A stretch of DNA of 64,000 nucleotides from Escherichia coli (GTDB lineage: Bacteria > Pseudomonadota > Gammaproteobacteria > Enterobacterales > Enterobacteriaceae): assembly GCF_003790525.1 (NCBI RefSeq), contig NZ_CP033635.1. The stretch is one strand, 5' to 3'. The translations under genes and the position numbers were made by a program. The notes beneath the pieces were generated by a model. That model was not told where the DNA came from. It saw nothing but the letters and a program-made list of their open reading frames with translations, and did not search any database. Shown here piece by piece: positions 1,463 to 36,478 of this stretch (within the stretch, counting starts at the first letter, position 1; the number at the start of each line of letters is the position of its first letter).

Positions 1463-1798
1463 TTATATAATCGCCATCACTTTCCAGGCTAGCCCATAGG
1501 CCAGCGCACTAAGCAGTGTTGGGATGATAATGCTGCGTGTTTTATAGAAACTGGCACCCAGTACCGCGAAGCCGACCAGCGTGGGCACGAAACGGCGTGT
1601 ATCGTGCATCACTTCTGGTGCGGTAGAGACAACCAGCAGAGCGCATATCGAGGCGATGCCAATGGTGTCGAGCAAAATGCCTATCGCGCCACGTTTGGTT
1701 GGGCGGGCATTACCCACACGCAGGCGCAGCGGCAGATAGCGGAAGCAATAATTCGCCGCGCCAACCAGTAACCCAAGCAGCAGAACCTCATAGCTCAT
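1463..1798 (-). CDS. ygaH: Branched-chain amino acid (L-valine) exporter small subunit YgaH
   Basis: 111-aa hydrophobic ORF overlapping the ygaZ stop; AzlD-like. Confidence 0.85.
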
Positions 1799-2525
1799 CG
1801 GGCGCTCCTTGCCAGAATGCCTGGATTAACGCAGTGAGGCAGCCACAGACAATGCCTGCCAGAATGGCGACGGGAATAGAAAATAGCGTTACGCCTGCAA
1901 GGGCACCAACTAACGCTGCGGTAACGCAAAGAGATTGTTTGCGCTGGAAAGAGGCGAGCAGGAAACTCATAAAGAGTGCCGGAAGCATAAAACCTAATGC
2001 TGCTTCAACGGCGGGATATCCTTGCAGCAAGCCGCTGCCGGAGAATGCCCCTATTACCGTACCAAATACCCACGATGACCATGAACTGAAGGCAATGCCG
2101 ATCATCCAGTTTTCGCTCCAGCGGCGATTATTGCGTACCAGTTTTGCGGTTGCGGCGGCAAAAACCTCATCCGTCAGGCCAAACGCCCACAGGGCGGTTT
2201 TCGATTTTTGCAGACGCTGAATAATACGGCTACGCAGTGACGGGCCATACAAAACATGGCGAACATCCATTGCCATGACGGTCAGTGCAGCAACCCACAA
2301 ACTACTCCCGGCTGCCAGCATCGCGGTAATGACGAACTGGCTCGCGCCTGCATAAATGATGCAGGAGAAAAAAACGCTTTCGAGAGGAGAGAATCCCAGA
2401 CGGGTCGCATTCAGACCGAACGCAAAGGCCACCGGAATATAACTAATAACAATCGGTAAACTGTCTTTGCATCCTTCCATGAAGGTCGCCGAACCAGGAG
2501 CAGGCTGTGGAGTAGGGCTTTCCAT
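1788..2525 (-). CDS. ygaZ: Branched-chain amino acid exporter large subunit YgaZ (AzlC family)
   Basis: 245-aa membrane ORF translationally coupled to ygaH. Confidence 0.85.
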
Positions 2526-2648
2526 AGAGTGTACGCTTAACGATTGTTAATATTATAAATAGACTGAATGAATATCTTAACCTTATCAGACTGATGGGCT
2601 TCTTAACACCCTTATAAGTGTAAAGCCACGAAAACGGTTGCTGATTGC

Positions 2649-3833
2649 TTAATTTGCGGCTTCCTGACGATGAAAACCTCGCCACCAGACCAGTAAGTTA
2701 ACCAGGGCAATCGTCGCGCCAGCCAGACAAACGCCAGCCCAACCGCCATGTTGCCAGGCTGAGGCTGAAATTAGCGAACCGGCGGCACCGCCAATAAAGT
2801 AGCTGGTCATGTAACCTGCGGTCAGGCGATTACGCGCATCAGGGTGTATTCGATAAATTACCGTCTGGTTAGTGATATGCACGCCCTGCACGGTGAGGTC
2901 CAGCACCAGGATGCCGATAACCAGCGCCAGTACAGAAGTGTGTCCAAACCAGATAGCCAGCCATGAAAGTAACAGCAGCAGCAGGCCGAAAGTTGTGGTG
3001 AGGTGTGATTTGCCCTTATCGGCAAAACCGCCCGCCGGACGAGCGCCTAACGCCCCGGCAGCTCCTGCAAGTCCGAACAGACCAATTACGCCATCGCTGT
3101 AGTTAAAAGGTGGAGCGGCAAGCAAAAAGGCCATTGAGGTCCAGAGAATGCTGAAGTTGGCAAAGGTCAGGCAGCCCAGCAACGCGCGGGTGCGCAGGAT
3201 TTTATCGCTGATAAACATGCTGAAAACAGAACCTAGCAACTGTGGGTAGTTGAGGTGGGTTTCTGATTTCATTTGTGGCAGACCACGCCATAACGCCAGC
3301 GCCATCAGTGCCATTAATACCGAAGCGACCCAAAAGACAGTTCGCCAGCCACCGAGACTCGCCAGCAATCCGGCAACGGTCCGTGCCAGCAAGATCCCCA
3401 ACAGCAGCCCGCTCATAATGGTGCCGACCACTTTGCCGCGTTTGTCCGGTGAAGCCAGCGTCGCTGCCAGCGGAACCAGAATTTGTGCCACGACTGAGAA
3501 TAAACCGGTTAATGCCGTACCGAGGATCATCATCGCCAGCGACTGACTGCTGGCGGTAATCAACATACCGCCCGCTGCCAGTAAGGTCATCGAGACAATC
3601 AGGCGGCGGCGTTCAAACATATCACCGAGGGGAACAAGAAACAGCAGACCTGCGGCATAGCCCAACTGCGCGGCGGTAACAATAAAGCCCGCCGAACTGG
3701 CGGAAAGGGAAAAGTTACGCGCGATGGTGTCGAGTAATGGCTGGGCGTAATAGTTACTGGCTACCGCCAGACCGGTGGCGATAGACATCAGCACGATCAG
3801 TGCCGGGCTAAGCTCATGATTAGGTTTAGTCAT
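2649..3833 (-). CDS. ygaY: MFS transporter YgaY, uninterrupted
   Basis: 394-aa ORF with multiple hydrophobic helices, MTKPNHELSPALIVLMSIATGLAV... Confidence 0.8.
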   Translation of the reverse strand: MTKPNHELSPALIVLMSIATGLAVASNYYAQPLLDTIARNFSLSASSAGFIVTAAQLGYAAGLLFLVPLGDMFERRRLIVSMTLLAAGGMLITASSQSLAMMILGTALTGLFSVVAQILVPLAATLASPDKRGKVVGTIMSGLLLGILLARTVAGLLASLGGWRTVFWVASVLMALMALALWRGLPQMKSETHLNYPQLLGSVFSMFISDKILRTRALLGCLTFANFSILWTSMAFLLAAPPFNYSDGVIGLFGLAGAAGALGARPAGGFADKGKSHLTTTFGLLLLLLSWLAIWFGHTSVLALVIGILVLDLTVQGVHITNQTVIYRIHPDARNRLTAGYMTSYFIGGAAGSLISASAWQHGGWAGVCLAGATIALVNLLVWWRGFHRQEAAN

Positions 3834-3934
3834 TATTTTTGTTCATCAGGTGATGATTAAGCTGGAAATCAATAATAGCGGATGTTGATGAATATGGGAT
3901 GAAAGATAGATTGTTGAAATGTGCGGTGTGGTTT

Positions 3935-4018
3935 GTAGGTATGATAAGACGCACCAGCGTCGCATCAGGCATTGTGTACAGAGCGGCGGATGAGGCAAAA
4001 ACGCCTTATCCGCCCGAA
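3935..4018. repeat. REP/BIME element cluster between ygaY and proX
   Basis: Sequence gtaggtatgataagacgcaccagcgtcgcatcaggc ... ggcggatgaggcaaaaacgccttatccgcccgaat matches the E. coli REP palindrome family. Confidence 0.7.
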
Positions 4019-4024
4019 TAAAAA

Positions 4025-5017
4025 TTACTTCTGCGCTGCCAGCGCTTCATTCACCCAGCCATCGAACTGCTGCTGGTGGGCTTTGATCCAACCATCAACG
4101 TGGCCCTGAATATCGCCTTCTGAGGCTTTGCCGTCATGCATAATGGCGTTCTGGGCGTTAATATCTGCCACTGGTAACTGCATAATGGCAAACAGTTTCG
4201 CTGCTGCCGGGTTTTTCTCAGCCCAGGCTTTGTTGGCAACGATATGCATGGTACTGACCGGGAAGCCGTAATTCGCGCCATTCGGCAGTTTGGTATCGGC
4301 ATTTTTATCGCCCGGCAGTGCGGAGAACGGCACCTGCAACCAGACCACATCTTTCCCCGGTTTCAGTTCGTTACTCACCCAGTACGGCGTCCAGGTGTAG
4401 TAAAACACCGGCTTACCCTCTTTGTAACGACTGATGGTGTCAGCCATCATCGCTGCGTAGTTCCCCTGATTATGCGTCACGGTATTGGTCAGTCCATACG
4501 CGGCAAGCTGGTGGTTGATCGCACCTTCGCAGCCCCAGCCTGGGTTACAGCCGGTTAAATCCGCTTTACCGTCGCCGTTGGTATCGAACAGTTTGGCGAT
4601 CTTCGGATCTTTAAGTTGCGCGATGTTGGTAATTTTATACTGGTCGGCGGTTTTCTTATCGATCAGGTAACCCTGTGCCGCGCCGTTAACAAATACTCCT
4701 TCACGATAAAATTTCTTATCGCCACCGGCAGCTTCATACATGTTGTCATGCAGCGGCGTCCAGTTCACGGCGGTGAAGGTTGCATCGCCGGAAGCAAGTG
4801 AGGTGTAGCCAACGTTGTAATCCACTTCGCTGGGTTTATTGACGGTATAACCTAATTTCTCCAGTGCACGACTGACCAGCAGCGTCTGGAAGGTTTCTTC
4901 AGTGATGGTACTCTGAACTGGATTAACAGTAATGCCTTTGCCCGGCAGATCGGCAGCAAAAGTTTGTGTAGAGATAAGCGTGGCAAACGCTGTCGCAAAA
5001 AGTACGCTATGTCGCAT
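4025..5017 (-). CDS. proX: Glycine betaine/proline betaine periplasmic binding protein ProX
   Basis: ORF with signal peptide [21 protein letters not shown]; start placed at the internal ATG that has a Shine-Dalgarno, not the track's upstream extension. Confidence 0.92.
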
Positions 5018-11428: not shown

Positions 11429-11636
11429 GATTCGTATTTCCGTTTAAAATGAAGATACGGCGCGATGATACGCGTCGGGTTGTCTCTCTGTTGATACAGA
11501 GATACTAGATGTAGTTGAAAAAAGATTCAACCACACAAGATATGGGAATTTTAGATTGATTACGCCACCGATGAATGGCTCAACGGGGTAGGGGATTTTG
11601 TGTTTTTTTGCCGGGCGAATACCCGGCATCAAGAAG
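11429..11636 (-). promoter_or_regulatory. nrdHIEF promoter/operator region (candidate NrdR/Fur sites)
   Basis: About 200 bp upstream of the first operon gene; contains palindrome-like acagagatactagatgt and cacacaagatatggg resembling NrdR-box half-sites. Not computationally scored. Confidence 0.3.
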
Positions 11637-12068
11637 TTACATCCGCATGGAAACGGCCAGACGGTTAAAACAATTCATCAGCCCGATGGCAAACGTTAAG
11701 TCGCTGATCTCTGCTGCGCTGAAATGCTCAAGCAAAGGCTGATAAACCTCGTCTTCCGCATGGGTTCTGGCAATTTCGGTTACCGATTCCGCCCATGCCA
11801 GCGCCGCCCGCTCGCGTTCATCAAAATGATGGCTTACGCGCCAACCTGCCAGGGCGTCCAGTTTGTGCTGTGGCACGCCGGATTTGCGCAATGCTTTGCT
11901 GTGCATCTCCAGACAAAATGCGCAGCCGTTGATTTGCGAGACGCGCAAATAAACTAACTCCATCAACGTGGTATCCAGTGTGCTATTTTCCAGTGCCGTT
12001 TTGGCCTGCACTAGTGCGTTATACACTGCCGGGCTAAGTTCGTAGTAAGGCTGACGTAATGTAGTCAT
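11637..12068 (-). CDS. Carboxymuconolactone decarboxylase / AhpD-like family protein
   Basis: 143-aa ORF with GCAFCLEMH (CxxC...H) core typical of the AhpD/CMD fold; AGGAG Shine-Dalgarno upstream of ATG. Confidence 0.7.
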   Translation of the reverse strand: MTTLRQPYYELSPAVYNALVQAKTALENSTLDTTLMELVYLRVSQINGCAFCLEMHSKALRKSGVPQHKLDALAGWRVSHHFDERERAALAWAESVTEIARTHAEDEVYQPLLEHFSAAEISDLTFAIGLMNCFNRLAVSMRM

Positions 12069-12155
12069 ACAGTTTCTCCTCTTATTAACGCCCGCAATGT
12101 AGCACTATAATGGACTGCTAAAGAGAGCCATAAATTACCTAAAAAAGCAGACCAT

Positions 12156-13490
12156 ATGCCGCGCTATCAGGATATCGCCCGTCAGTTAAAAACGGCTATT
12201 GAGCAAGGGGAACTGAAACCCGGCGCAAGGCTGCCTTCAAGTCGTACCTGGTCGCAGGAGCTGGGGGTGTCTCGATCCACTGTCGAAAATGCGTATGCTG
12301 AGCTGGTGGCGCAAGGATGGCTGATCAGGCGGGGACAGGCTGGCACATTTGTCAGTGAGCGGATATATCCGCAACAATCTACTGTACAAGTTGTAGCTTT
12401 TGCCGGTGAAAGTCAGCAACCGTTGCCATTTCAAATGGGATTACCCGCACTCGATCTCTTTCCGCGAGAGCTGTGGGCGCGGGTGATGGGGCGTCGCCTT
12501 CGTACCCAGACGCGCTTTGATTTGGCGTTAGGCGATGTCTGCGGTGAGGCGGCGTTGCGCGAGGCAATAGTTGATTACTTACGCGTTTCACGTGGGATTG
12601 ATTGTCAGCCAGAGCAGGTCTTTATCACTCACGGTTATGCGGCCTCAATAGCTTTAATTCTGCACGCGCTGGCGAAACCGGGAAACGGGATGTGGATAGA
12701 AGATCCCGGCTTTCCACTGATTCGCCCGATTGTCACTCGCCATGATGTGGAAATTTTGCCTGTGCCGGTTGATGACAATGGACTGGATATCACAAGCGGA
12801 ATACAAAATTATCCTGATGCGCGTTTTGCCCTGATAACACCAGCACACCAAAGTCCGCTGGGTGTGGCGCTCTCTTTAGCGCGCAGGCATCAGATACTGG
12901 AATGGGCAGATCGTAGTCAGGCATGGATTATTGAAGATGATTATGACAGTGAGTTTCGCTATCACGGTAAGCCGTTACCGGCGTTGAAAAGTCTCGACGC
13001 ACCGCAGCGGGTAATTTATGCCGGAACATTCAGCAAAGCGCTATTTCCTGCATTGCGCTGTGCGTGGCTGGTGGTGCCGGTGAAGCAAATTGCACAATTC
13101 CGCCACCAGGCGTCACTGGCTCCATGTGCGGTACCTGTTCTATGGCAGAACACACTGGCAGACTTTCTTCGCGAGGGGCATTTCTGGCGGCATCTGAAGA
13201 AAATGCGTCAGCATTATGCTCAACGTCGGCAATGGATTGAGCAAGCGTTGACGCAGCAAGGATTTCAGGTTGTGCCGCAGAAAGGTGGTATCCAGATGGT
13301 GATCAGAATGATAGGCGATGATATTGCCCATGCGCGTAAAGCCAATGCTGCAGGCCTTGCGGTGCAGGCACTTAGCGACTGGCGTATCCGTTCAAGTGGG
13401 GAAGGTGGATTACTGCTTTCGTTTACTAATATCGTTAACGAAGGTATGGCGCGACAGGTAGCACAACAATTACGTAAAGCCTTAAGCTAA
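12156..13490 (+). CDS. MocR/GabR-type regulator (GntR HTH fused to PLP aminotransferase-like domain)
   Basis: 444-aa ORF; N-terminal winged-HTH (LPSSRTWSQELGVSRSTVENAYAELVAQG) and C-terminal fold-type-I motif with putative PLP lysine (TFSKALFPALRCAWLVVP). Divergent from the AhpD-like gene. Confidence 0.75.
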   Translation: MPRYQDIARQLKTAIEQGELKPGARLPSSRTWSQELGVSRSTVENAYAELVAQGWLIRRGQAGTFVSERIYPQQSTVQVVAFAGESQQPLPFQMGLPALDLFPRELWARVMGRRLRTQTRFDLALGDVCGEAALREAIVDYLRVSRGIDCQPEQVFITHGYAASIALILHALAKPGNGMWIEDPGFPLIRPIVTRHDVEILPVPVDDNGLDITSGIQNYPDARFALITPAHQSPLGVALSLARRHQILEWADRSQAWIIEDDYDSEFRYHGKPLPALKSLDAPQRVIYAGTFSKALFPALRCAWLVVPVKQIAQFRHQASLAPCAVPVLWQNTLADFLREGHFWRHLKKMRQHYAQRRQWIEQALTQQGFQVVPQKGGIQMVIRMIGDDIAHARKANAAGLAVQALSDWRIRSSGEGGLLLSFTNIVNEGMARQVAQQLRKALS

Positions 13491-18367: not shown

Positions 18368-19768
18368 TCAGCGCGTATTATGAACGGGTGTTTTTTGCCA
18401 CAATACCAGCTTTTTCCAGCGAGCCATAATTGGCACGGTACAGATAATCCCTATCGCTAATAAGCCGGTGGAGATCACTTCTAACTGTTGCGCCGGGCGG
18501 AATAGCATCACTACCAACACAAAGGTAATAAAGCCGATGACCAGCCAGGTGAGCCACGGATAAAGCCACATCCGCAGGCGAATTTCGCTTCCTTCTGCTC
18601 GCAGAATTTTGCGCATCCGCAATTGTGAAACGGCGATGACTAAATAAACCAGCAGGGCGATAGCACCGGAGCTGTCGATCAGAAATTTAAACACTTTCGC
18701 AGGCGCGTAATAATTCACCACCACCGTTAAAAATGCCGCGCCGGTGGAGAGTAATACCGCCACATACGGGGTTTTACTGCGGTTGATTTTACCCATTACC
18801 GCGGGCGCATCACCGCGACGGCTTAAGGAGTAGAGCATTCTGGAAGCGGTATACAGCGCCGAGTTCAGGCAACTGGTTACGGAAAGTAATATCACGCAGT
18901 CCATGATTAATTTCGCATGGGGAATATTGAGCAACTCCAGAACCGAGCGATAAGATCCAACGGCTTTCAGCCCCGGCATATTCCACGGTATTAATGCCAC
19001 GACGACAAAAATAGAGCACAAATAGAAGATAGAAATACGCCAGATAACCGAGTTGGTGGCGCGGACAATATGTTTTTCCGGCGTGTCAGATTCCGCGGCG
19101 GCAATAGTGACAATTTCTGCGCCCATAAACGAGAACATGGTGATCAACATCGCGCTTAATACCGCACCGAAGCCGTTGGGCATAAAGCCGCCGCTATCCC
19201 ACAATCTTGAGATCCCGCTCACTTCGGCATAAGGGTAAAAACCGCTAATTGCGACTGCACCAAGGAAAATAAAGGCCAGGATAGCGATGACTTTGCACAG
19301 CGCCAGCCAGAACTCAAATTCGCCGTAGTTTTTAACGCTTAATAAATTACTGCCAGTCAAGGCGAGGGTAATGACCAGGGAAAATAACCAGATGGGAATG
19401 CCTGGAACCCACGAGTGCAGGATCATGGCGGCGATGTTGGCTTCCAGTGGGATAACCAGTACCCAAAACCACCAGTACAACCAGCCGATGGTATAGCCCG
19501 CCCAACGGCCAATGGCTTTATCGGCATAGGTGGAAAACGAACCGGTATCGGGCGTGGCAACCGCCATTTCCGCCAACATCCGCATAATCATAACCACCAG
19601 TAATCCGGCGAACAGATAGGCCAGTAATACCGCCGGGCCCGCTTCGGCGATGGCGACGCTGGAACCGACAAACAGACTTGCGCCGATAACACCGGCAATA
19701 GACAACATGGTGACGTGGCGTGACTTCAGCCCGCCGCCTAACTCATGTGGTTGCGATGATTGCCCCAT
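18368..19768 (-). CDS. gabP: GABA permease GabP (APC family)
   Basis: ORF MGQSSQPHELGGGLKSRHVTMLSIAGVIGASLF... with 12 predicted TM segments. Confidence 0.93.
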   Translation of the reverse strand: MGQSSQPHELGGGLKSRHVTMLSIAGVIGASLFVGSSVAIAEAGPAVLLAYLFAGLLVVMIMRMLAEMAVATPDTGSFSTYADKAIGRWAGYTIGWLYWWFWVLVIPLEANIAAMILHSWVPGIPIWLFSLVITLALTGSNLLSVKNYGEFEFWLALCKVIAILAFIFLGAVAISGFYPYAEVSGISRLWDSGGFMPNGFGAVLSAMLITMFSFMGAEIVTIAAAESDTPEKHIVRATNSVIWRISIFYLCSIFVVVALIPWNMPGLKAVGSYRSVLELLNIPHAKLIMDCVILLSVTSCLNSALYTASRMLYSLSRRGDAPAVMGKINRSKTPYVAVLLSTGAAFLTVVVNYYAPAKVFKFLIDSSGAIALLVYLVIAVSQLRMRKILRAEGSEIRLRMWLYPWLTWLVIGFITFVLVVMLFRPAQQLEVISTGLLAIGIICTVPIMARWKKLVLWQKTPVHNTR

Positions 19769-34300: not shown

Positions 34301-35955
34301 TCGTCTATGCAGGTACGCTGGCGGATGCATCGGTCAGTGGCGCGACAGGAAGCCTGTCGTTAATGACGCCACGGGATAATGTTACGCCAGTTAAACTCGA
34401 AGGGGCGATCCGGATTACCGATAGCGCGACATTAACTATCGGAAATGGCGTCGATACGACGCTTACCGACCTGACGGCTGCCAGCCGGGGCAGTGTCTGG
34501 CTTAACAGCAATAATTCCTGTGCAGGTACCAGCAACTGCGAATATAGAGTAAACAGTTTGCTCCTCAACGACGGTGATGTTTATTTATCAGCACAAACAG
34601 CAGCGCCTGCCACAACTAACGGTATCTACAATACGCTGACAACCAGTGAACTTTCCGGCAGCGGTAATTTCTACCTGCATACCAACGTTGCAGGCTCCCG
34701 GGGCGATCAACTGGTCGTCAACAACAACGCCACTGGTAATTTTAAAATCTTTGTTCAGGATACCGGCGTCAGCCCTCAGTCTGACGACGCGATGACGCTG
34801 GTGAAAACAGGGGGAGGGGATGCTTCGTTTACGCTGGGTAATACCGGCGGTTTCGTTGATCTTGGGACCTATGAGTATGTCCTGAAAAGCGACGGCAACA
34901 GCAACTGGAACCTGACCAATGATGTCAAACCCAACCCGGACCCCAACCCAAATCCGAAGCCGGATCCAAAACCAGACCCAAAACCGGATCCGAAACCAGA
35001 CCCGACTCCCGATCCAACGCCGACACCCGTCCCGGAGAAACGCATCACGCCTTCTACGGCAGCCGTACTCAATATGGCAGCAACATTACCGTTGGTCTTT
35101 GATGCTGAGCTAAACAGTATTCGCGAGCGGTTGAACATAATGAAAGCGAGTCCACACAACAATAATGTCTGGGGGACGACGTATAACACCCGTAATAATG
35201 TCACCACCGATGCGGGTGCCGGGTTTGAGCAGACGCTGACCGGAATGACGGTGGGGATCGATAGCCGTAATGATATTCCTGAGGGGATTGCGACGCTGGG
35301 CGCTTTTATGGGTTATTCCCATTCACATATCGGTTTTGATCGTGGAGGACATGGCAGTGTGGGCAGTTATTCTCTGGGGGGCTATGCCAGCTGGGAACAT
35401 GAAAGTGGTTTCTATCTGGACGGTATCGTGAAGCTGAACCGCTTTGAAAGTAACGTAGCCGGTAAAATGAGCAGCGGTGGAGCCGCCAACGGCAGTTATC
35501 GCAGCAACGGGCTGGGCGGTCACATTGAAACCGGGATGCGATTTACCGATGGTAACTGGAACCTGACGCCGTATGCATCGTTAACGGGGTTCACCGCTGA
35601 TAACCCCGAATATCATTTATCCAATGGCATGGAATCGAAATCAGTCGATACCCGCAGTATATATCGTGAACTGGGCGCAACGCTGAGTTACAACATGCGT
35701 CTGGGGAACGGCATGGAAGTTGAGCCGTGGCTGAAGGCGGCTGTGCGCAAAGAATTTGTCGATGATAACCGGGTGAAAGTGAATAATGACGGTAATTTTG
35801 TCAATGATTTGTCGGGCAGACGTGGAATATACCAGGCAGGTATTAAAGCCTCATTCAGCAGTTCGTTAAGCGGGAATCTCGGGGTGGGGTATAGCCATGG
35901 TGCCGGTGTGGAATCCCCGTGGAACGCAGTGGCTGGTGTGAACTGGTCGTTCTGA
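31378..35955 (+). CDS. ypjA: AIDA-type autotransporter adhesin-like protein YpjA
   Basis: Signal peptide MKFMNRTSLHYCRRSVLSLWISALIYAPPGMA (alternative start 31387); long passenger with ~19-aa beta-helix repeats (GG.Q.V..GG.A..T.I); Pro-rich linker; C-terminal beta-barrel ending ...AGVNWSF. The track ORF starts at an upstream GTG (31258). Confidence 0.85.
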   Translation: MKFMNRTSLHYCRRSVLSLWISALIYAPPGMAAFTPDVIGVVNDETVDGSQKVDERGTTNNTHIINHGQQNVYGGISNESLIESGGYQDIGRHNNYVGQANNTTINGGRQTIHDGGISTGTIIESGNQDVYTGGISNGTTIKGGNSHISGGTANGTIIDGGSQRVTTQGHVDSTTINKSGSQDVVQGSLATNTTINGGRQYVEQSTVETTTIKNGGEQRVYESRALDTTIEGGTQSLNSNSTAKNTQIYSGGTQIVDYTSTSDVIEIYSGGVLDVRGGMATNVTQHDGAALKVTTYDLTVSGTNSEGAFSIHNNVADNVLLENGGHLDVYGSATRTIIKDKGTMSVLTNAKADATRIDNGGVMDVAGNATNTIINGGTQNINNHGIATGTNINSGTQNIKSGGKADTTNISSGSRQIVEKDGTATGSNISAGGSLIVYTGGIAHGVNQETGSALVANTGAGTDIEGYNKLSRFTIIGGEANYVVLENTGELTVVAKTSAKNTTIDAGGKLIVQKEAKTDSTRLNNGGVLEVQDGGEAKHVEQQSGGALIASTTSGTLIEGTNSYGDAFYIRNSEAKNVVLENAGSLTVVTGSRAVDTIINANGKMDVYGKDVGTVLNSAGTQTIYASATSEKANIKGGKQTVYGLATEANIESGEQIVDGGSTDKTHIKGGTQTVQNYGKAINTDIVSGLQQIMANGTAEGSIINGGSQVVNEGGLAENSVLNDGGTLDVREKGSATGIQQSSQGALVATTRATRVTGTRADGVAFSIEQGAANNILLTNGGVLTVESDTSSAKTQVNAGGREIVKTKATATGTTLTGGEQIVEGVANETTINDGGIQTVSANGEAVKTTINEGGTLTVNDNGKATDIIQNSGAALQTSTANGIEISGTHQYGTFSIAGNLATNALLENGGNLLVLAGTEARDSTVGKGGAMQNLGQDSATKVNSGGQYTLGRSKDEFQALARAEDLQVAGGTAIVYAGTLADASVSGATGSLSLMTPRDNVTPVKLEGAIRITDSATLTIGNGVDTTLTDLTAASRGSVWLNSNNSCAGTSNCEYRVNSLLLNDGDVYLSAQTAAPATTNGIYNTLTTSELSGSGNFYLHTNVAGSRGDQLVVNNNATGNFKIFVQDTGVSPQSDDAMTLVKTGGGDASFTLGNTGGFVDLGTYEYVLKSDGNSNWNLTNDVKPNPDPNPNPKPDPKPDPKPDPKPDPTPDPTPTPVPEKRITPSTAAVLNMAATLPLVFDAELNSIRERLNIMKASPHNNNVWGTTYNTRNNVTTDAGAGFEQTLTGMTVGIDSRNDIPEGIATLGAFMGYSHSHIGFDRGGHGSVGSYSLGGYASWEHESGFYLDGIVKLNRFESNVAGKMSSGGAANGSYRSNGLGGHIETGMRFTDGNWNLTPYASLTGFTADNPEYHLSNGMESKSVDTRSIYRELGATLSYNMRLGNGMEVEPWLKAAVRKEFVDDNRVKVNNDGNFVNDLSGRRGIYQAGIKASFSSSLSGNLGVGYSHGAGVESPWNAVAGVNWSF
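34930..35034 (+). repeat. Tandem Pro-rich (NP/KPDP/TP) linker repeat inside ypjA
   Basis: Encodes PNPDPNPNPKPDPKPDPKPDPKPDPTPDPTPTPVP from near-identical 12-nt units (ccg gat cca aaa / cca gac cca aaa). Confidence 0.85.
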
Positions 35956-36115: not shown

Positions 36116-36478
36116 TGGTGGAGCTGGCGGGAGTTGAACCCGCGTCCGAAATTCCTACATCCTCGGTACTACATGCTTAGTCAGTCTTTACATTCGCTTG
36201 CCAGCTGCGGACGGACACGCCACTAACAAACTAGCCTGATTAAGTTTTAACGCTTCAACCCCAGGCAGGGCTTCCACGCGATCTCTTTTGGGTTTGACCT
36301 CTCTTGATCCCCGTCCTAAGAGCGGAGGCTAGGGAGAGAGGGCTCTAAGCAGGTTATTAAGCTGCTAAAGCGTAGTTTTCGTCGTTTGCGACTATTTTTT
36401 GCGGCTTTTTACGAGGCCAACCGCCCCTCGGCATGCACCTTGGGTTTCGCAAATCCCGTCGAATCCAGAATCAGCCCC
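36116..36478 (-). ncRNA. ssrA: tmRNA (SsrA), 363 nt
   Basis: Reverse complement reads GGGGCTGATTCTGGATTCGACGGGATTTGCGAAACCC...GCGGGTTCAACTCCCGCCAGCTCCACCA; includes the tag reading frame region. Confidence 0.95.

Follow-up and report, generated by a model that had tools for sequence, protein, structure and literature searches.

Is ygaY a genuine transporter gene in Escherichia coli strains outside the K-12 lineage, and how was it broken in K-12? The K-12 genome record NC_000913.3 lists a 1178-nt pseudogene as ygaY (b2681), and a PGAP-annotated record of MG1655 labels it 'frameshifted'; in the literature the K-12 gene appears as a cryptic gene, a pseudogene or a neutral site, used as a control or for integration. 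Here we analyzed a stretch of 64,000 nt of E. coli DNA (contig NZ_CP033635.1, hereafter the window), in which ygaY is uninterrupted. We find that this copy is very probably an intact chromosomal gene, vertically inherited, which encodes a 394-amino-acid, 12-helix secondary transporter of the major facilitator superfamily (MFS), a member of the YnfM family (TC 2.A.1.36).

The ygaY reading frame

One uninterrupted open reading frame (ORF) of 394 aa, from ATG to TAA, fills positions 2649..3833 of the window on the minus strand. In a random frame a stop-free run of 394 codons would be met with p ~6e-9, and thus the ORF is not accidental. Its DNA is 100% identical to the coding sequence of WP_000165717.1 (strains SC516 and SMS-3-5), with the same start and stop. 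The product scores 145.5 bits (E 2.5e-42) with the Pfam MFS_1 model (PF07690), over residues 17-311 and a second stretch, which is above the gathering cut-off of 33.4 bits and places the protein in the MFS. The ORF listing, the MFS_1 match and the ends of the RefSeq coding sequence all agree with the single unbroken 394-aa frame described in the initial annotation, to which only the strand, omitted there, has to be added. An intact ygaY is ordinary and already known, RefSeq annotating an intact MFS transporter in SMS-3-5.

Origin of the K-12 pseudogene

The disruption of ygaY in MG1655, stated in the initial annotation, is borne out both by the pseudogene annotation and by the sequence itself. 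Alignment of the window ORF with K-12 ygaY contains one 7-nt gap at ORF nt 255-262 and 45 substitutions. The original K-12 frame ends after codon 87 (…LLAAC*), and the remaining protein runs on in another frame. The break point falls inside TM3 (helix 75-94 of the structural model described below), so that, on the predicted topology, what K-12 makes from ygaY is unable to act as a transporter.

The homologous site of the window (3565..3579, minus strand; ORF nt 255-269, codons 85-90, LAAGGM, in TM3) reads CTGGCAGCGGGCGGTATG and, when aligned pairwise with HS30-1 and K-12, shows no perfect GCGGCAT-GCGGCAT tandem repeat. Such a repeat is present in the commensal strain HS30-1, whose intact ygaY shows 0 substitutions relative to K-12 outside the 7-nt gap and reads CTG-GCGGCAT-GCGGCAT-GTTG at the lesion site, a perfect 7-bp tandem duplication of which K-12 has one unit. 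The duplication is due to codon 88, which in the repeat-bearing sub-lineage is TGC (Cys; G88C, GGC -> TGC); at this residue, beside the K-12 lesion, the window carries the Gly of all outgroups (GGC/GGT). The codon-88 repeat allele bears GCGGCATGCGGCAT, versus the GGC (Gly88) allele. The exact 60-mer with the repeat was found in 684 complete genomes.

Replication slippage on the GCGGCAT repeat is the simplest and probable origin of the K-12 deletion. That no further substitution separates K-12 from the HS30-1 allele shows the deletion to be very recent. The K-12 pseudogene represents a recent lineage-specific accident, in which one of the two GCGGCAT units was lost and the protein was truncated in TM3. 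Only this repeat-slippage account of the frameshift and its frequency figures are mildly new.

Distribution in complete E. coli genomes

A megablast search of 5,426 complete E. coli genomes returned ygaY as a single copy per genome, with 80% or more of its length covered in 5,413, always on the chromosome and annotated as 'MFS transporter'. The K-12 junction, represented by a 100-nt probe with a match counted at identity of at least 99%, was found in 353 of 5,417 complete genomes; the other 5,064 align over 107 nt versus 100, i.e., carry the extra 7 nt. The sampled junction-bearing genomes are K-12 laboratory derivatives, ER1709, MG1655 and W3110 among them. Judged by these sequence counts, the undeleted ygaY is therefore the species norm, in ~93.5% of complete genomes (a figure that counts only the K-12 7-nt deletion), and K-12 is the exception. 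An intact ygaY is not a distinguishing mark of the window strain.

Lesions of other kinds occur sporadically in other isolates, as seen from YgaY-like products of 175-323 aa in public protein sets, which are truncated or chimeric. In the chimeras P0222 and P0146 the YgaY N-terminus is joined to the EmrA C-terminus at a shared GKVVG motif, and in P0249 it is followed by the EmrR C-terminus. These chimeras imply natural deletions of ygaZH, and of emrR too in the EmrA chimeras, in some isolates or assemblies. Among the other public proteins, P0121 and P0135 have lost internal segments of YgaY in frame, and P0001 (596 aa) contains an internal duplication.

Conservation, gene neighborhood and expression

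Orthologs of 394 aa in E. coli, Shigella, E. marmotae, E. fergusonii, E. albertii and Citrobacter align with YgaY end to end at 93-99% identity, and the start and stop are shared with the 394-aa orthologs of five other species or genera. By its position between proX and ygaZH, its length of 394 aa and its amino-acid identity of at least 93%, the window gene belongs to the ygaY ortholog group. The view of the initial annotation that this strain keeps the ancestral intact allele is upheld by these collinear orthologs and by Gly88, as in the outgroups. The window and HS30-1 genes differ by 44 synonymous changes and 4 non-synonymous ones (dS 0.157, dN 0.0046); the resulting dN/dS of 0.029 indicates strong long-term purifying selection on the YgaY protein. 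The word 'functional', also used in the initial annotation, draws inferential support from this ratio and from the complete predicted fold.

Upstream, ygaY adjoins proX, the last gene of proVWX (4025..5017, minus strand, annotated length 993 nt), from which it is separated by 191 nt (3834..4024, minus strand, 96.9% identical to K-12). The ygaY promoter and ribosome-binding site must be in this gap. A promoter scan of the 191 nt found no sigma-70 consensus match, and no clear Shine-Dalgarno sequence is seen before the ygaY ATG. A terminator scan at ygaY returned two 'terminator-like' matches, both within the coding sequence and at chance frequency. Directly downstream, beyond a spacer of 123 nt (2526..2648, minus strand), lie ygaZ (1788-2525) and ygaH (1463-1798), both on the minus strand and together spanning 1463..2525, the genes of an L-valine exporter of the AzlC/AzlD type, according to the ORF listing and the RefSeq annotation of identical DNA. 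The next same-strand gene past them is emrR, and Citrobacter keeps the whole block nrdEF-proVWX-ygaY-ygaZH-emrR-emrAB. In the ygaY-ygaZ spacer the scan detected a sigma-70 promoter-like site TTAAGA-17-TATAAT (2580..2552, minus strand), which serves ygaZH; the same hexamers are reported for this spacer as the constitutive RpoD promoter of ygaZH (PMC3946193).

The lack of a consensus promoter and Shine-Dalgarno sequence upstream would suit a cryptic gene, intact but silent, that is open only for want of a lesion so far. The binding of H-NS and StpA around the proX-ygaY junction in K-12 points the same way, as does the normal growth of K-12 without ygaY, the deletion being used as a neutral control and the locus as an integration site. 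However, the 44 synonymous versus 4 non-synonymous changes require long-term purifying selection, ygaY is kept into Citrobacter with the same length and position at 93% amino-acid identity, and 5,064 of the 5,417 complete genomes do not have the K-12 deletion, which together make a silent gene improbable. A gene maintained by selection is the reading that we retain. Since H-NS lies over ygaY in some K-12 ChIP data sets, its expression in the laboratory could be low. The literature searched contains no experiment on expression or transport by intact YgaY, being confined to the K-12 gene as a pseudogene, control or integration site and to a chromatin study of proVWX.

Lineage of the window and origin of the allele

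Positions 1-23,833 of the window are 100.000% identical, with 0 mismatches, to SMS-3-5 (NC_010498.1), which we take to be the phylogroup F reference strain; the window thus derives from SMS-3-5 or from one of its clones. Relative to K-12, the window shows 97.2%, 96.5% and 94.6% identity in three collinear blocks (~34 kb), or 93-99% per kb. By gene, identity to K-12 is 96.2% for ygaY, 96.7% for proX, 97.4% for proW/proV and 98-99% for ygaZ-emrR (99.3% for ygaZ). The window has a ypjA-like autotransporter gene (31258-35955, 1565 aa) and the tmRNA gene ssrA (36116-36478), and collinearity stops at ~36138. In K-12 ypjA is followed by genes of the CP4-57 prophage (ypjF, yfjZ, rnlAB, abpAB and others), whereas the window ypjA directly adjoins ssrA-smpB, and hence the CP4-57 block is absent. 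The identity to SMS-3-5, the 94.6-97.2% identity to K-12 and the lack of CP4-57 genes beyond ypjA sustain the assignment to a non-K-12 lineage made from the sequence at the outset. On this comparison of sequences, the divergence from K-12 affects the whole region and lineage and is no special property of ygaY.

The ygaY allele of the window is rare, being found at identity of at least 99% in 26 of 5,426 genomes, SMS-3-5 included, and most genomes are ~96% identical to it. This rarity, the high dS of 0.157 relative to the phylogroup-A allele, and the sharp step from 100% (spacer) and 99.3% (ygaZ) to 96.2% (ygaY) might be taken to mean that the allele was imported horizontally or is a recombinant, not the vertically inherited 'ancestral' one. 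We consider this very improbable. The neighboring proX, proW, proV and nrdEF have diverged from K-12 to the same degree, as have the next 25 kb (95.5-98% per kb), the gene order is unchanged, and the allele is shared in identical form by 24 genomes, among them SMS-3-5 and similar isolates from chicken, dog and human, which fits one clonal lineage. The spacer, 100% identical to K-12 versus 96.2% for ygaY, points to a boundary of recombination close to the ygaY 3' end; such a local mosaic boundary would be ordinary E. coli core-genome recombination. Foreign import of the rare allele was rejected, the whole 36-kb region being equally divergent from K-12, and vertical inheritance of ygaY is preferred.

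Several other differences between the window and related genomes were observed. About 1.9 kb between nrdH and ygaM (11544-13488) is missing from K-12, and both its genes are annotated in SMS-3-5: a carboxymuconolactone-decarboxylase-family ORF (11637-12068, minus strand, 143 aa, PF02627) and, divergent from it, a GntR/aminotransferase (MocR-type) regulator ORF (12156-13490, plus strand, 444 aa). An uninterrupted 750-aa alpha-amylase-family ORF occupies 25372-27624 on the minus strand; its K-12 counterpart is a pseudogene with an internal stop, and this is a second case of an allele broken in K-12 and intact in the window strain. In strain SC516 gabP is split by an ISApl1 (IS30-like) element, inserted at a site corresponding to window positions 19336-19343, whereas the rest is 99.97% identical to the window; gabP is intact in the window and in SMS-3-5. 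Finally, the tRNA gene at 28181-28256 (plus strand) is called tRNA-Met (CAT anticodon) by ARAGORN and tRNA-Ile (ileY-type, lysidine-modified CAU) by RefSeq, a disagreement that is a routine annotation difference and no anomaly.

Structure, motifs and family of YgaY

The hydrophobicity seen in the translated ORF, described as transporter-like helices in the initial annotation, was resolved by structure prediction. A Kyte-Doolittle scan with a 19-residue segment gave 11 partly overlapping peaks, which leave the helix count unsettled. The AlphaFold2 model (71-sequence alignment; pLDDT 94.7, pTM 0.92) predicts 12 transmembrane helices in two bundles, the twelve helices forming the two six-helix bundles expected of an MFS protein. 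The N-half comprises helices 10-40, 45-71, 75-94, 99-126, 132-161 and 163-184, the C-half 211-239, 247-272, 276-298, 301-329 and 331-393 (TM11 and TM12 read as continuous), and a short amphipathic helix 196-209 joins the two bundles. In a Foldseek comparison with the PDB, the model matched SotB and MdfA with a TM-score of 0.84 and NorA with 0.80-0.81, over ~385 of the 394 residues. SotB, MdfA and NorA are all proton-coupled exporters. At the sequence level PDB matches were weak (GlcP, 4e-8; SotB, 1.5e-5).

Alignment with homologs, proposed in the initial annotation as a way of detecting a damaged ORF, found it neither truncated nor frameshifted. An exhaustive profile-free search collected 1,145 cluster representatives at E<=1e-30. 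Those of full length are typically 390-420 aa, and for the distant homologs the median is 406 aa. That the frame is open and yet defective, i.e., truncated, extended or frameshifted relative to full-length homologs, is hardly conceivable: the truncated and chimeric products described above occur elsewhere and provide nothing for the window copy, whereas its start and stop match those of the 394-aa orthologs, no ortholog supports an N-terminus upstream of the ATG at 3833, distant homologs cover query residues ~5-390, and the 12 helices of the model superpose on SotB and MdfA over ~385 columns.

The TM2-TM3 loop of the intact transporter contains a variant form of motif A (G-x-x-x-D-R/K-x-G-R-R/K), P68-L69-G70-D71-M-F-E-R75-R76-R77, in which P68 is shared by all of 71 homologs and L69, G70 and D71 each show conservation of 90% or more. 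The TM8-TM9 loop carries the C-domain counterpart, G268-G-F-A-D272-K-G-K275, whose G268 and D272 likewise reach at least 90%. Conserved membrane-embedded residues across the family are R151, D312, N322 and Q323. The antiporter motif C (G-x-x-x-G-P-x-x-G-G) is absent from TM5 (residues 132-161), which reads GKVVGTIMSGLLLGILLARTVAGLLASLGG and has no G-P. The family models of the DHA1 drug:H+ antiporters (Bcr/CflA, EmrD, MdfA, Cmx) give at best 47.8-63.3 bits, below their curated cut-offs of 200-480 bits, which leaves YgaY outside these families. No equivalog or subfamily model of NCBIfam reached its cut-off for YgaY, the sub-threshold matches being to DHA1-like and sugar-efflux models, and thus no substrate can be transferred to it. 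YgaY aligns with E. coli YnfM (b1596) over its full length (BLASTP, 26% identity, 409 columns, E 2e-20), and its TCDB entry (P76628) is 2.A.1.36.3, YnfM family (PMC5417439); both the similarity and the listing place YgaY in the YnfM family.

Possible transport role

YgaY would operate as a rocker switch with alternating access, powered by the proton gradient. YnfM is a CCCP-sensitive, proton-coupled exporter of glutarate (PMC12622518). Within the YnfM family, efflux of dicarboxylates (glutarate or succinate) is an activity known for YnfM alone. Since the nearest structural relatives of YgaY are DHA1-type exporters and its paralog YnfM exports glutarate, YgaY most likely exports a small organic metabolite; both the substrate and, given the absence of motif C from TM5, the direction of transport are putative. 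YnfM has been reported as the only glutarate exporter in BL21(DE3) (PMC12622518), which argues against glutarate as the YgaY substrate if the BL21 ygaY is intact. A link of YgaY to glutarate catabolism (glaH-lhgO-gabDTP-csiR), an idea derived from glutarate export by YnfM, was dismissed: it has no basis, the genes being ~17 kb away.

A bolder proposal, which we regard as doubtful, is that intact YgaY is an active metabolite exporter working with the neighboring efflux genes (the ygaZH valine exporter and emrR-emrAB), and that the 7-bp repeat produced by G88C, present in ~680 complete genomes, is a frameshift hot spot that made the loss in K-12 likely. If it is true, K-12 has lost a real efflux activity, and transporter and metabolomics surveys based on K-12 are blind to YgaY. 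In any case the standard laboratory strain cannot be used for studying ygaY, which encodes an orphan MFS transporter and is subject to strong purifying selection, and the status of the locus as a 'neutral' integration site or control holds only for K-12. The overall significance is small, a reminder that K-12 is atypical at ygaY.

Comparison with known systems

The closest known counterpart, the 'MFS transporter' WP_000165717.1 of SMS-3-5 (ECSMS35_RS14185) and SC516, is identical to the window gene in DNA, protein and coordinates, without any difference. K-12 ygaY (formerly split into ygaX/ygaY; UniProt P76628; TCDB 2.A.1.36.3) occupies the same locus between proX and ygaZ, with 96.2% nucleotide identity and 3 amino-acid differences outside the lesion, but it lacks one GCGGCAT unit (7 nt, ORF nt 255-262), whereas the window copy is uninterrupted. 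YnfM, the type member of TC 2.A.1.36, resembles YgaY as a 12-TM MFS protein that aligns with it over the full length and belongs to the same TCDB family; in contrast to YgaY, it is a paralog at another locus, next to the LysR regulator ynfL, and its assigned activity is glutarate efflux. Finally, the DHA1-type exporters SotB (6KKK), MdfA (4ZP0, 6EUQ) and NorA (8TTF) have the same fold and helix topology as YgaY (rmsd 2.5-3.9 Å), but sequence identity is just 15-18%, the fold being alike and YgaY standing outside their families.
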